Program-made: the position numbers
Source: Escherichia coli O157:H7
GTDB taxonomy: Bacteria; Pseudomonadota; Gammaproteobacteria; Enterobacterales; Enterobacteriaceae
DNA length: 64,000 nucleotides
NCBI RefSeq assembly: GCF_013167455.1
Contig: NZ_CP038328.1
Direction: 5' to 3' (one strand)
Part shown: one piece after another, positions 3,001 through 15,000 of the stretch
Numbering within the stretch: position 1 is the first letter of the stretch
How the letters are laid out: each line of letters begins with the position of its first letter

Positions 3001-6000
3001 CAGCAGAAGAAATGAGAAGAGGCATTAATTTGATGGTTCTAATTCAACCGGAATACTTTTATAGCCAGGAATGCCACTTAATGGATCGTGGTTATCAAGT
3101 GTTAGCATGTGATTCGATTCTGGAAAATAGGTCACCAGTGAGCGGTCAGCCATAGGGTAAATGACCACTTTTAATCTATCCATGCGGCGTGAGCTGCGCT
3201 TACCGTCTGGCGTAAGCGCAATAAGATTAACTCTTTCGCCGTTTTTTACACGGCAAATTTTAGCTTGTTTAGCACTCATAAAGACCACATCTCGTTGACC
3301 GAATACCCCTCGATAGCGATCATCCATACCATAAATCGTCGTGTTGTACTGATCGTGGCTGCGTACTGTCGCCATGACCAGCTTACTGTTAAACGCTGAA
3401 GAGGGATCTTCTAACAGCCCTTTGCTGGTAATGAAATTAGCCTTACCTGACGGCGTCATCCAGCGCCTTTCAGCAGCTGCATTTATCAGGTGAAAACCAC
3501 CGGGATGACGGATGCGTTGGTTATAGTCGGCGAACTCTGGCAGCACAGCTTCAATGTCATTGCGAATGCGATCATAATCTTCCACCAGATACTCCCAGGC
3601 TACCACGCTCTGGGGTAGTGTTGCCTGCGCGATTCCCGCGACCACAGCACACTCTGATTTCAGCATTACACCGGCGGGTTTTAACACGCCACGCGAGGCA
3701 TGAATCATCGACATTGAATCCTCAACGGTTACCGCCTGCGCACCGCTTTTTTGCATGTCAATCTCGCTACGTCCCAGAACCGGCAGAATATAGCTATGCC
3801 GTGCGGTCAGCAGATGAGAGCGGTTAAGCTTAGTGGCTACGTGTACCGCCAAATCTAATTGCGTTAACGGTACAGCGCTCGCTTCCCGATCTGGCATTGC
3901 CAGTGCAAAGTTGCCCCCCATGCAGATCAATGCTCGAGCCTGCCCCGTACATATTGCTTGCATGCTGGCAATTGCAGCATGTCCAGGTACATGAGGTGGG
4001 GTGAAGCCATAGCGCTCACCCAGGCGAGCCAGAAACTCTACAGACGGTTTCTCGGTGATACCGACGGTTCGGTCGCCCTGTACATTAGAGTGGCCACGTA
4101 GTGGGCAGATACCCGCACCAGGCTTGCCAATGTTACCTTTCATCAACAGCAGATTGACCAGTTGCTGTACATTCTGGGTACCATGTTCGTGCTGAGTGAT
4201 CCCCATTCCGTAACAGATAATGGTTCGTTCGGCAGCGGCATATGCATCAGCCAGTTCGGCGATTTGTGTCTGACTTAGTCCAGAAATACGTTCGATATCT
4301 TTCCACTCGGAATTGAGCACGTCACGGCGTAGCTCGTCAAAGCCGACGGTATGCGTTTGAATAAATTCGTCATCCAGCAATGAGGGCCGACCTGCGGCGC
4401 TTGCAGCATCATCGCGCTCAATTAACAGGCGCATCATCCCCTTGAGCAACGCCATATCACCACCAATGCGCACGTTATAGTAGGCACTGGCCAACTGAGT
4501 CTCAGAGTTCGTCAGCATTTCAAACGGGTTTTGCGGTGCGGTAAATCGCTCCAGGCCACGTTCCTGTAGAGGATTGATGGCGATCATTTTCGCTCCCCGT
4601 TTCACTAAAGCGCGCAACGAAGTCAGCATGCGAGGGTGGTTTGTACCAGGGTTATGCCCAATGCAAATGACTAAATCGCACTTCTCAAAGTCTTCCAGCA
4701 ACACGGTCCCTTTACCTACACCGATACTCGCTGCCAAACCCACGCTTGTCGGTTCATGGCACATGTTGGAGCAGTCGGGAAAGTTATTGCTCCCGTATTC
4801 ACGGGCAAAAAGCTGATAAAGAAAGGCAGCTTCATTGGAAGTGCGGCCCGAAGTATAGAATTCAACCTGATTGGGATCACTATAGCTTTGAAGGCGTGCG
4901 CCAATTTCGTCGAAAGCTTGTTGCCAGCTTAATGGCTTGTAACAGTCGCTGACAGCATCATATTTCAAAGGCTGAGTGAGACGTCCCGCAGCCTCAAGCT
5001 CGTGATCTCCCCAGGTAAGTAATGATTGAACCGTATTCTGAGCAAAGAAAGAGGCATTTACCTGCTTATCCGTGACTTCCCAGGCGATTGCTTTTGCGCC
5101 GTTTTCACAAATGTCGAATGACGCACTGTGCTTAGGATCTGGCCATGCACAACCCGGACAGTCAAAGCCCTCTGGCTTATTCATGTCAAACATGGCAATA
5201 ACATCCTGGCGTATATCCATCTGCTTACGTACTGCATTCGCTACGGATTTAACAGCACCCCAACCACCGGCAGCACCCTGGTAGGATTCAATTTTTTTCT
5301 TCATCTACTTATCCTGTGTGGAAATGAATTATTAGGATTTGTAATAGCGATGATGCACAGTACATACAAAGGGATTATCGCCAACATGGATATATAAGAG
5401 TAGGGGACTACTCTCTTTCTATTTTTAATCTATTATCGTTAAACAATAGATTAAATACGATAAGGTAAGCATCATCTCTCATAGTGTTTAAATTAACATA
5501 TTTTTCAATATAAAAAATAAGACTCTGGCTTCAATTGTGCGCGGATTTTCTTACAAGTGTAGGATAATAGCCTTCACAAAATAATTATCCGCGCAATTTT
5601 CGTGAATGGAGCGCATAGACTAAGGTCAAAATCACAATTATTCATAGATAAAAGTGACACCAATGACTGACTGGACGGTTCCGGCTGAAACTTTGTTCCC
5701 TGTTTGTCCATAGGTTGCGCTTAAACCCAGAGGTACTTTGCTTTTATTTACTGTCCCCAGGGAGACATTTTCTCCCGTAGCCAGTATTTTTCCATTACGC
5801 ATCAGAGAGACACCCACTCCCGATGCTTTTGTTGCATCTGGTGCTGTGTTAGCAAACACTTGTCTAGCACTGTCAGTGGTAGTACCCGAAAGATAAAATG
5901 AGAGCTTTTGTTCGCTTGAGCAATATACGCCAAGGGGGATTTCTGCGCTTCCAGGAAAGTCCGGGAGATTCACGGTGACATTACGACTATCAACAGTGCA

Positions 6001-12000: not shown

Positions 12001-15000
12001 ATTCTCCAAAATTTATATTTAAGTAGCTGAATAAAGAGAGTTAACAATTAAGTCATTCTGTTATTGCTTATAAAACAAGAATCATTCTTGATTGGTTGTT
12101 GCCCTGAGAATATAGTTTCCAGGGTTATTACATTTCACGAAGAACGATAATATCTTTAAATCACAAGGACACCTAATCACAACAAGTTTATTGCTGCACT
12201 TGTTGAAGAGAGTATTTGCAAAAACATTTTATGTCGCTAAATAACATGACGATTTCATTATGCATGTTATTTATAAACCGTGACTAAACAGAATATTATT
12301 GCGAACAAGGGAAGTGTCAGGAAAGGTCAAGGGCTACTAATGGTTTATATGGCTATAAATCATTAGCTATAGTTAATGTTTGCCTGGTGTAACTAACACC
12401 GAATTGCTCTAAACAGATAAGTGCAGGGTTTATTAAAGCTGACCGACAGACTTTCTTAACCTGGTAATATCTCTCTTGGGTGACTCTCCAAACATCCGCA
12501 AATATTCCCGTCGGAAATGGGATAAGCTTTCGTAACCGACAGCATAGGCTGCTGTGGTGACATCGTAATGTTCATTCAGCATCGTTCGCCTGACTTCATT
12601 GAGACGTAGCCATTTCTGATACCGGAGTGGACTCATTCCCGCAAGCTGCCTGAAGTGTTGATGGAAAGAGGGCGTGCTCATTTGCACGCGGTTTGCCAGC
12701 TTGAGTCTTCAACGCTGGGAAGATGCGGCAAACGGCAAATCGGCATACCAGCCAGCCTATATCCGTCATGCACAGGCCAATTATGAAAGAGGAGAAGCTT
12801 AAGTTCTGGAATCCTGAACGAATAACGACTACCGGAAAATCACTTCGTATCACTCAGATACGATTTAACATAATATACATTATGCGCACCAATATAAACC
12901 AAGGGAGAATCTAGTCGTTGGCGGTCATGATTGTCCTGCTCATTAACAACGACCAAACCCCATATCTTACTCTTACTTAATACCGTATTCTCGGCTTAAC
13001 CGACCGTGCAACCTCAACACATTGGTTTCAACTGCCGTCACCACGTTCTCTGGAAAATCTGTCGGTAATGAAGTCTTCACGTTATCCAGTGCTGCCGGAA
13101 TCATTCTGGCAAAGTCACTCAGGATTTCATGCATCTGCACTTCCGGGAATCTCAGCACCTTTGCTGTCGCCAAAAAATGTCGCGGATAAATTTTATCGAT
13201 TGCCGTTTTTTTGCCTTTGGATGCGTTAAGCCCCATTGCCAGTTTGAGATCGCTGATGTGTATTCCCGTACCGCCAAGGACCGGAAATGCTGAAATGATG
13301 TCGTAAAATGGCGTGAGTCGATAACTGCCGCCAGCCTGAATAAATACGGAGAAGTTTTTTGCATGGCCATCCGTTGCGCCAATCAACCACTGGAAGACCT
13401 GGAATTTCATAAAATCATAACGATCGCGAAGCGCCTCGCTGAACCCCATCAAAAAAGCCATGATCCGCGCGATGCCTGGGCCTCCATCTGATTCATATTT
13501 CACCGATGAAGGTAAACCGAATGTCTGACACATATCCTCCTGTGGCAAGCGAAGTAAAACCGTTCGCTCAGCATTCCAACGCCTGTCAAAACGTTCGACC
13601 GCTAACGCGCGCACATTTCCCGCTTTAATGATTTCTGCGTCCGGGACATTCAACCCAAGTTCTTTCGCCAGCAGCAGACAGTAATACTCATTATCAACGC
13701 TTTGGCTGAGATCGAGCGTCGCATTGGGCTGCCTGATTTCCCCAATCGGTAATTTAATGATGTGCGTCGTCGGCGTTATTCCTTTCGGAATGCACCAGTC
13801 ATTGCCTATTCTGAGCAGTGCTGTCTTCTCCTGTGCGCCAGCAACCGAGATGCGAAAGTCATTTTCTTCTCTAATCATGCCTAGCGGGATATCTGCTTTA
13901 TAAGCCGTTAATACTTCTTCAAGTCTGACTTCAGTAAGCTTTTCCCATGCCATTATCGGACGCGTTACGGTTTCGTCTTCGGGTATTAACGTCACGGCAC
14001 CAACGCTGTCTCGCCCTATTTCTGACAATAAATCAAACTGTACGGGATAAACGCTGCGATATCCGCGATCGCGGATAAAAGGGAGGCTTTAAAAGCCTTT
14101 TGAAGTTGGCAATATTAAGCCGCATGCCATCTCGACATGCGGCTTATACTGTTTACCAGCTATATTTCACTCCCAGCATGCCCTGAGTATCGCTATAGCC
14201 TTTATCACCTAGTTGCACACCGACATTCCCCCACAGGCTAAGGTTGTTATTTACTTTCGCCTCAACCCCGGTACGTACTTCACCGAGATTTCGCGCACCA
14301 TCACGGCTTACGGTTTGACCATTCATCTTCACGGCGTAGACTTTGCTATTGTTGATCCAGTTCGCTTCAATGTAAGGCTGGAACTCACGCTGTTTACCAT
14401 CGTCACGCTGGTGATGGCTATTCAGGTAGGTTTTCACCCCAAGTCGCGTTTGCACGTTTCCGTCGCCTTCCGTTTCAATGCGCGTTCCGTCTTTCCGGGC
14501 ATGGTCAGAATCTTTCACACCCATCCAGGTGATTTGCGCCTGTGGCTGGACGTACCAGGTATTCAGCGTCCCTTCGCTGCCGCTACATGTTCCCGCTTCA
14601 AAGGTATACCCACCCTCAACAGAGGCCGTCACACCGCGAGAATCATAGTCGTCAGCAGAACGGTTATCGGAACTGACGCTGTTATCAAACCAGTTATACA
14701 GCGCCCAGCTGTCAACATAAGCGCCGGTCTTATTCGCATCGTTCTGATACCAGGTCGCGTACAGCCCAGCGCTGTAACCGCTGATGCGCCCATCCGATTT
14801 ATAACCCACACGATTACTCTGAGTATTACTGTGCTGATTGGCGTAGCCTGCCATCACGCCAAGATGCCAGCGATCCTGCGCGTTGCTACTCCACTGCGCC
14901 AAATCGCCGCCTAGCTGCAATACATAGCGGTTAGCCTGAGTATTTAGCTGGCCGTCTCCGGCACTGGAACGTTCGTGCCCCCCGACATGACGCATCCACA

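Follow-up and report, generated by a model that had tools for sequence, protein, structure and literature searches.

An intact F9 (Fml) chaperone-usher fimbrial operon in Escherichia coli O157:H7 at a locus partly deleted in K-12

Surface assembly of F9 fimbriae and their expression at low temperature are known for the Escherichia coli strains Sakai, EDL933 and CFT073 (PMC3966885, PMC7766294). In CFT073 the f9 promoter was mapped by 5'-RACE as TAGTCG and CATAAT separated by 18 nt, with transcription starting at a G 251 nt upstream; the promoter is bound by H-NS, and fimbriae were seen at 20 °C (PMC3966885). A translational fmlA reporter showed at least sixfold higher activity at 18 °C, F9 of Sakai binds galactosylated xyloglucan, and a Sakai fmlA mutant shows reduced adherence to spinach (PMC7766294). 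The operon, its distribution, its regulation by H-NS and low temperature, its ligands, the structure of its adhesin and its disruption in K-12 have all been published already, in part for strains nearly identical to the present one.

We analysed a stretch of 64,000 nucleotides from an O157:H7 strain (contig NZ_CP038328.1), referred to below as the window, and conclude that the region 5638-11999 is almost certainly the chromosomal chaperone-usher operon f9 (fml, yde) in intact form, closely paralogous to the type 1 (fim) operon. The locus agrees with the published description of F9/Fml (Yde) fimbriae (PMC3966885). As in Sakai (ECs_2107-ECs_2113) and EDL933, the same six genes lie between ydeP and a hipA remnant, and window positions 1-17765 (17.8 kb) are 99.98% identical to Sakai, with hipA truncated, hipB missing and an AraC-type fragment present, all as described for that strain (PMC7766294). 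The promoter and 5'UTR are identical to those of Sakai, and the only difference within the operon is one SNP that leaves glycine at usher residue 532, the species consensus, in place of the aspartate of Sakai. Gene order, gene lengths and promoter architecture are also those of the UPEC F9/Fml operons (CFT073, UTI89), and the proteins are 96-99% identical to those of UPEC strain 2/0, although in the latter hipA is full-length and no yneL-type fragment is annotated in the upstream flank. Comparison with the F9 operons of pathogenic E. coli thus bears out the original prediction, and the window is confirmed as O157:H7 lineage with a complete F9 system.

The original prediction had described six uninterrupted genes in one orientation, and this description holds. 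Six non-overlapping ORFs, none of them interrupted, lie on the minus strand between 5638 and 11999. The ORF listing gives 11436-12047 (203 aa from a TTG, 187 aa from the ATG at 11999), 10365-11084 (239 aa, or 236 aa from the annotated start at 11075), 7672-10323 (883 aa), 7128-7658 (176 aa), 6612-7115 (167 aa) and 5638-6552 (304 aa). Of the predicted span, 5638-12047, the lower end stands, but the upper end is a mechanical TTG start: both the PGAP and the Sakai annotations begin fmlA at the ATG at 11999, which has GGAG 7-10 nt upstream, and this ATG is the real start.

In the direction of transcription, the first gene is fmlA (ECs_2113; 11436-11999), which encodes the major subunit of 187 aa (Pfam Fimbrial, 7.7e-31, 1-150/151); it carries a signal peptide, a Cys50-Cys90 pair and a C-terminal FKVQYL, its residues 31-186 match FimA structures, and it is identical at all 187 positions to the ETEC-2264 protein, with dN/dS of 0.00-0.04. 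The periplasmic chaperone (ECs_2112; 10365-11075, 236 aa) contains PapD_N and PapD_C and shares 65% identity with FimC over 204 aa, and its R39 and K143 align with the conserved FimC cleft residues R8 and K112. The usher (ECs_2110; 7672-10323) had been predicted to be a full-length protein of 883 aa, and it does contain PapC_N (1-146/146), Usher (1-549/549) and PapC_C (1-66/66) complete, aligning to FimD residues 2-833. It is followed by the minor subunit genes ydeS (ECs_2109; 7128-7658, 176 aa; Pfam Fimbrial, 2.7e-22) and ydeR (ECs_2108; 6612-7115, 167 aa; 7.9e-10), which PGAP calls FimF-type and FimG-type, respectively, in some genomes, and by the gene for the two-domain tip adhesin, ydeQ/fmlH (ECs_2107; 5638-6552, 304 aa).

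These proteins have the features of a classical chaperone-usher system: a full-length usher with its N-terminal domain, barrel with plug, and C-terminal domains; a PapD-like chaperone of two domains with the cleft arginine and lysine (Arg8 and Lys112 of FimC); and pilins with a putative signal peptide, a disulphide pair and a conserved C-terminal strand, as judged from sequence features. All four subunits match Pfam Fimbrial and show a hydrophobic leader at the N-terminus, a Cys pair and an aromatic residue in the penultimate position.

The intactness of the operon and its identity to characterised alleles were observed directly. All six genes cover their Pfam models almost end to end, full-length structure matches were obtained to FimA, FimC, FimD and FimH, and in two genomes with 100% identity over this region PGAP annotates no pseudogene among the six genes. 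Each gene has the length of its orthologues in UPEC 2/0, ETEC-2264 and the divergent MFDS1022581 and a single terminal stop, and a search for a hidden frameshift or premature stop, by lengths, stops and per-gene identity against three divergent strains and MG1655, found none. Purifying selection acts on all six genes (dN/dS 0.00-0.30, highest in ydeR), with dS reaching 0.5 against the most divergent strain. Because the operon is intact, under purifying selection, and preceded by a promoter and 5'UTR identical to those of Sakai, where F9 function has been shown, it is potentially functional, as had been proposed.

If the system works as Fim does, Sec would export the subunits, the FimC-like chaperone would hold them in the periplasm by donor-strand complementation, and donor-strand exchange at the FimD-like usher would polymerise them. 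The expected product is an FmlA rod carrying a YdeS-YdeR-FmlH tip, in which the order and the roles of YdeS and YdeR are assigned by homology. Type 1 fimbriae (fimAICDFGH) belong to the same gamma-1 chaperone-usher clade (PMC3966885), and the usher here spans all of FimD. What sets F9 apart from the fim operon is the absence of a fimI homologue, of the fimB/fimE recombinases and of an invertible switch, the 5'UTR of 251 nt, the gap of 360 nt past the major subunit gene, and the binding of galactosides rather than mannose. Upstream of the operon there is no recombinase gene or fimS/FimB/FimE-type arrangement, the neighbours being the hipA remnant and a yneL-type AraC-family fragment (12433-12702, minus strand) with HTH_18 only and the N-terminus missing. 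No link between the yneL-type fragment and f9 control was found in PMC3966885.

The adhesin had been called FimH-like, which is correct for family and fold but not for the mannose pocket. It matches FimH_man-bind (6.1e-78, 1-145/145) followed by Fimbrial, and shares about 50% of its residues with FimH (140/282 overall, 45% in the lectin domain and 57% in the pilin domain). Taken literally, this likeness would make the locus a type 1 paralogue of the same mannose specificity and a back-up for the fim operon, and the FimH pocket residues F1, N46, D47, Y48 and D54 are indeed conserved. However, 6 of the 12 mannose-pocket and tyrosine-gate positions are replaced, two in the gate (I52Y, Y137L) and four in the pocket (Q133K, N135A, D140N, F142R), so that the residue set of mannose-specific FimH (F1, N46, D47, D54, Q133, N135, D140, F142) is incomplete. 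Residues 25-184 are 100% identical to the FmlH lectin domain of the crystal structures 6AOW (UPEC FmlH) and 5LNE, this identical domain has been co-crystallised with the TF disaccharide and with galactosides (PMC5866590), and all six galactoside-pocket residues defined in that work (F1, Y46, D53, K132, N140, R142) are present. Together with glycan arrays showing binding to Gal-beta1-3-GlcNAc and to galactosylated xyloglucan (PMC3966885, PMC7766294), these data make a mannose-specific back-up extremely improbable, and the published FmlH co-crystal structures had already refuted it. We conclude from the residue comparison that the adhesin binds galactosides and not mannose, since its lectin domain is that of FmlH and six mannose-pocket and gate positions are replaced. 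The ligands, with specificity taken from the literature, would be terminal galactosides, namely Gal-beta1-3-GalNAc/GlcNAc and galactosylated plant xyloglucan, and the system should be inhibitable by known FmlH galactoside ligands.

The predicted f9 promoter (12257-12286, minus strand) consists of a -35 hexamer TAGTCA, an 18-nt spacer and a -10 hexamer CATAAT, and differs from that of CFT073 in the last base of the -35 hexamer (TAGTCG in CFT073). Position 12250, at a distance of 251 nt upstream from the fmlA ATG, is a G and corresponds exactly to the start site mapped in CFT073, which places the 5'UTR at 12000-12250 (minus strand), without a SNP relative to Sakai. At the level of sequence elements, promoter and long 5'UTR are thus at the homologous position, and the DNA is AT-rich (34% GC over 12001-12500), as expected of an H-NS target. 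This sigma-70 promoter would start transcription about 251 nt ahead of fmlA. The AT-rich DNA around it would be silenced by H-NS at 37 °C, since H-NS binding and temperature control are known from published work on identical or near-identical alleles. Because of this silencing at 37 °C, most fimbriae would be made at about 18-28 °C, away from the warm-blooded host.

The gap between fmlA and the chaperone gene, unusually long at 360 nt, contains a hairpin (11366-11394, minus strand; 13-bp stem, 3-nt loop) located 41 nt after the fmlA stop. It has no U-tract and is therefore not a canonical terminator. The hairpin is conserved in four divergent strains with one non-compensated change and no covariation, and the whole gap gives a folding z of -3.5. 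A consensus scan found no minus-strand intrinsic terminators after fmlA or ydeQ, with site counts not above those of shuffled sequences, and 5300-5660, downstream of ydeQ, read by eye, shows no more than an inverted repeat of 9 bp around a 40-nt loop and no clear terminator. One could imagine that the hairpin is a processing or stability element that, with the 5'UTR, sets major-subunit excess and contributes to the reported control of fmlA translation by temperature, which would be an undescribed post-transcriptional layer of F9 regulation. What speaks for the hairpin is conservation and predicted stability, and it may have a role in major-subunit stoichiometry. Folding of the 5'UTR is no more stable than that of shuffled sequence (MFE against 200 shuffles, z = -0.58), which lends no support to an RNA thermometer, and a whole-window scan found no Rfam family at gathering score in 5300-12800. 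We consider such a post-transcriptional layer quite improbable.

Structural intactness could also conceal an operon that is effectively cryptic: permanently silenced by H-NS, without phenotype, a conserved remnant decaying as in phylogroup A. Repression at 37 °C is strong, expression in wild-type O157:H7 is very low, with fimbriae reportedly below detection by immunofluorescence, and an F9 mutant showed normal colonisation of the bovine terminal rectum, all as summarised in PMC3966885. Decay is seen in the neighbouring loci (a fragmentary yneL, a truncated hipA with hipB lost, an autotransporter gene frameshifted and hit by a transposon), and about one third of E. coli genomes lack part of the operon. 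Against permanent silencing stand the purifying selection in all six genes, the poor adherence of the Sakai fmlA mutant to spinach, the fimbriae made by CFT073 at 20 °C, and signature-tagged mutagenesis hits in f9 that impaired calf colonisation, as cited in PMC3966885. We judge a cryptic state unlikely and favour a temperature-regulated operon, with an adhesin that is produced at environmental temperatures and has been linked to attachment to plants and abiotic surfaces. Its contribution in the host is modest or niche-dependent, because expression escapes immunofluorescence and the F9 mutant colonised the bovine rectum normally.

In K-12 this locus had been described as partly deleted, with an usher fragment, ydeT. 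In a blastn comparison of the window with MG1655 (NC_000913.3), the segment 8899-12178 (3,280 bp) is absent, confirming that description. The deletion takes out the 5' half of the usher gene (475 codons, N-terminal), the chaperone gene, fmlA and most of the 5'UTR; MG1655 retains the promoter, no more than about 72-73 nt at the start of the 5'UTR, ydeS, ydeR and ydeQ intact and 98-99% identical, and the C-terminal usher fragment ydeT (annotated 382 aa), and cannot assemble fimbriae. The junction reads GGTTCC followed by ACAACAAG, with an ambiguity of 1 nt, and inspection of both boundaries revealed no repeat or IS. Base-pair boundaries are thus now given from direct observation, and K-12 and other phylogroup A strains have lost the promoter-proximal half through this one deletion.

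The population frequency was likewise observed directly. The operon is present at 80% coverage or more, a measure of coverage and not of per-gene intactness, in 3,586 of the 5,426 complete E. coli genomes (about 66%), and at least 80% of the segment deleted in K-12 is held by 3,537. That the operon marks the strain as non-K-12 is true, but presence is the common, majority state in E. coli, and with about 66% of genomes carrying it the operon is only a weak strain marker. By that measure about two thirds of E. coli genomes have the operon intact, and in K-12 it is broken, so that the finding, although correct, is an ordinary one, of little weight as a discovery and useful as annotation.

The strain studied differs from Sakai in a further respect, a complete Tn5393 streptomycin-resistance transposon inserted in the autotransporter gene 5.7 kb upstream of the operon. 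Among the 5,426 complete genomes, this insertion is found only in strain FRIK1989.

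This region carries the F9/Fml (Yde) operon, which encodes a gamma-1 chaperone-usher system close to type 1 fimbriae, and the ORF listing of the window together with the Pfam profiles bears out the original prediction of six uninterrupted genes in one orientation, which are consecutive, without overlaps and all on the minus strand. They encode the major subunit FmlA (ORF 11436-12047, 203 aa from TTG; Fimbrial), the chaperone (ORF 10365-11084, 239 aa; PapD_N and PapD_C), the usher (7672-10323, 883 aa; PapC_N, Usher and PapC_C), the minor subunits YdeS (7128-7658, 176 aa; Fimbrial) and YdeR (6612-7115, 167 aa; Fimbrial), and the adhesin YdeQ (5638-6552, 304 aa; FimH_man-bind and Fimbrial), each covered essentially end to end by its profiles. 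The operon end first placed at 12047 is only the first TTG of a mechanical ORF; PGAP and the Sakai annotation both start fmlA at the ATG at 11999 (187 aa, GGAG 7-10 nt upstream); for the chaperone, the PGAP start is 11075 (236 aa).

To look for a concealed frameshift or early stop, we compared the lengths and stops of the six genes with those in strain 2/0 (a urinary-tract isolate), ETEC-2264 and MFDS1022581 (the most divergent match, ~90% DNA identity), and found none: the lengths of 564, 711, 2652, 531, 504 and 915 nt are equal in all three strains, each gene has one terminal stop, and protein identity is 91-100%. In the two genomes with 100% identity across this region, none of the six genes is flagged by PGAP as a pseudogene. 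The products also align over the whole mature length with solved Fim structures (FimA 2-158, FimC 2-204, FimD 2-833, FimH 1-279), and the chaperone cleft keeps the equivalents of FimC R8 and K112. By homology to Fim, the subunits would first be exported through Sec, then undergo donor-strand complementation by the chaperone, and then polymerise at the usher through donor-strand exchange, which would yield an FmlA rod bearing an FmlH-YdeR-YdeS tip.

Nei-Gojobori dN/dS ratios against the same three strains, with dS up to 0.5, are 0.00-0.04 for fmlA, 0.06-0.15 for the chaperone, 0.09-0.15 for the usher, 0.05-0.09 for ydeS, 0.30 for ydeR and 0.04-0.14 for ydeQ, values that indicate purifying selection on all six genes. 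Major fimbrial subunits are usually expected to be antigenically variable, and FmlA (11436-11999) differs in being nearly invariant, with 185-187 of 187 residues identical and dN/dS of at most 0.04 even against a strain with a dS of 0.35.

The interpretation as an intact F9 operon is supported, with the caveats that the adhesin is the galactoside-specific FmlH and that the intact state is common. The adhesin had been called FimH-like, and this holds for its overall identity to type 1 FimH (~50%; 45% in the lectin domain and 57% in the pilin domain) but not for its pocket. Over residues 25-184 the adhesin shows 100% identity to the lectin domain of FmlH as crystallised (6AOW and related entries, 5LNE), while mannose-pocket and tyrosine-gate residues of FimH are altered (Q133K, N135A, Y137L, D140N, F142R and I52Y). 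It also has each of F1, Y46, D53, K132, N140 and R142, the residues in contact with the terminal Gal of the TF disaccharide and of synthetic galactosides (PMC5866590). Judged from these residues, the pocket is the FmlH galactoside pocket and not a mannose pocket. Terminal Gal-beta1-3-GlcNAc has been reported as an F9 ligand for identical or near-identical alleles (PMC3966885), as has galactosylated xyloglucan for O157:H7 F9, and a Sakai fmlA mutant adheres more weakly to spinach tissue (PMC7766294). F9 was already known: Low et al. cloned it from O157:H7 in 2006 (as cited in PMC7766294), and papers followed on its distribution and H-NS/temperature control in 2014, on the structure and inhibitors of its adhesin in 2018 and on its plant ligand in 2020.

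The K-12 locus had been described as partly deleted, with the usher fragment ydeT, and this is correct. MG1655 aligns with the window to 8898 and again from 12178 (junction …GGTTCC/ACAACAAG…, with one ambiguous base), a loss of 3,280 bp that takes usher codons 1-475, the chaperone gene, fmlA and the 5'UTR from about +73 on, and leaves the f9 promoter, ydeQ, ydeR and ydeS. The annotated ydeT product (382 aa) begins at an internal Met equivalent to position 502 of the usher. The boundaries of the deletion bear no repeat or IS. Among 5,426 complete E. coli genomes, 5,360 have some match to the locus, 3,586 (66%) have a single place that covers 80% or more of the 7.1-kb query, and 3,537 have 80% or more of the segment that K-12 lacks; genomes with the K-12-type coverage of 54% form a large class. 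These counts agree with those of Wurpel et al., whose survey scored the operon as intact in 25 of 42 genomes and detected it only in E. coli and Shigella (PMC3966885). Intactness is therefore the ancestral state of the operon and also the majority one. As a marker of non-K-12 strains, the intact operon rules out the deletion allele of K-12 and phylogroup A; beyond that it is not diagnostic.

The predicted f9 promoter (TAGTCA-18 nt-CATAAT, 12286-12257, minus strand) matches that mapped in CFT073, where 5'-RACE placed the transcription start at a G 251 nt upstream, after TAGTCG-18-CATAAT (PMC3966885); here a G at 12250 lies exactly 251 nt upstream of the fmlA ATG. H-NS binds the CFT073 promoter fragment and represses expression at 37 C, with fimbriae seen at 20 C (PMC3966885). 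The 500 bp upstream of fmlA have a GC content of 34%. The fold of the fmlA 5'UTR is not more stable than shuffled controls (z = -0.58), and an RNA thermometer there is therefore unsupported. The 360 nt that separate the fmlA and chaperone genes do, taken whole, fold better than shuffles (z = -3.5), and 41 nt past the fmlA stop there is a hairpin with a 13-bp stem and a 3-nt loop (11366-11394, minus strand), which lacks a U-tract. Four divergent strains keep this hairpin; a single change in it is non-compensated, and no positions covary. Elements in other fimbrial operons make it plausible that the hairpin acts in transcript stability or attenuation and so favours the major subunit.

By megablast, 5400-12500 is 100% identical to O157:H7 genomes, and 1-25000 aligns at 100% identity in one piece only with the bovine strain FRIK1989. 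Four SNPs separate 1-17765 from Sakai, where the operon is ECs_2107-ECs_2113 and the promoter and 5'UTR are identical; the one inside the operon (8729) gives usher residue 532 as G in the window and D in Sakai, G being the residue in all other strains examined, including the K-12 remnant.

The upstream flank of f9 is a hotspot of insertions and deletions. It holds an N-terminally truncated AraC-type fragment with only the HTH_18 domain (12433-12702), for which the f9 literature shows no regulatory role. In O157:H7 17B6-2, otherwise 100% identical, an ISEc8 (IS66-family) element absent from the window separates this fragment from the hipA remnant (window 12958, against L001 13560-15999). At hipBA (12973-14082, junction 14038), a 617-bp deletion relative to MG1655, shared with Sakai and already in the literature (PMC7766294), removes the promoter, hipB and the hipA 5' end, leaving a 351-aa ORF with a HipA_C domain.

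The most notable feature near the operon is a complete Tn5393-type transposon of 6,705 bp (17766-24470) with tnpA (Tn3-family), tnpR, IS1133, strA (aph(3'')-Ib) and strB (aph(6)-Id). Its terminal inverted repeats are imperfect, and it is flanked by a 5-bp TACGT target duplication. Plasmids of Salmonella and E. coli carry 100% identical copies, and the chromosomal junction is found in only one of the 5,426 genomes, that of FRIK1989; this is a chromosomal acquisition of streptomycin resistance in an O157:H7 lineage. Its target, a ydeK/ECSE_1600-family autotransporter gene (yneO/ydeK/ydeU in K-12 terms; 14153-17765 and 24471-25990), is continuous in Sakai; here the transposon splits it and its annotation also records a frameshift, and it is a pseudogene in K-12 too.

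The identical FRIK1989 record shows an internal stop in yneK and an N-terminally truncated ydfJ (~44456-45571 and 61181-64000), the latter lying beside a DinI-like gene and IS256/IS66 remnants, which suggests a prophage or IS boundary at the window end. The Hfq-binding sRNA STnc560 (52911-53124, minus strand) is a full-length Rfam match (282 bits, gathering score 55) that adjoins dgcZ; the small-protein genes mgtT/mgtS overlap it from the opposite strand.
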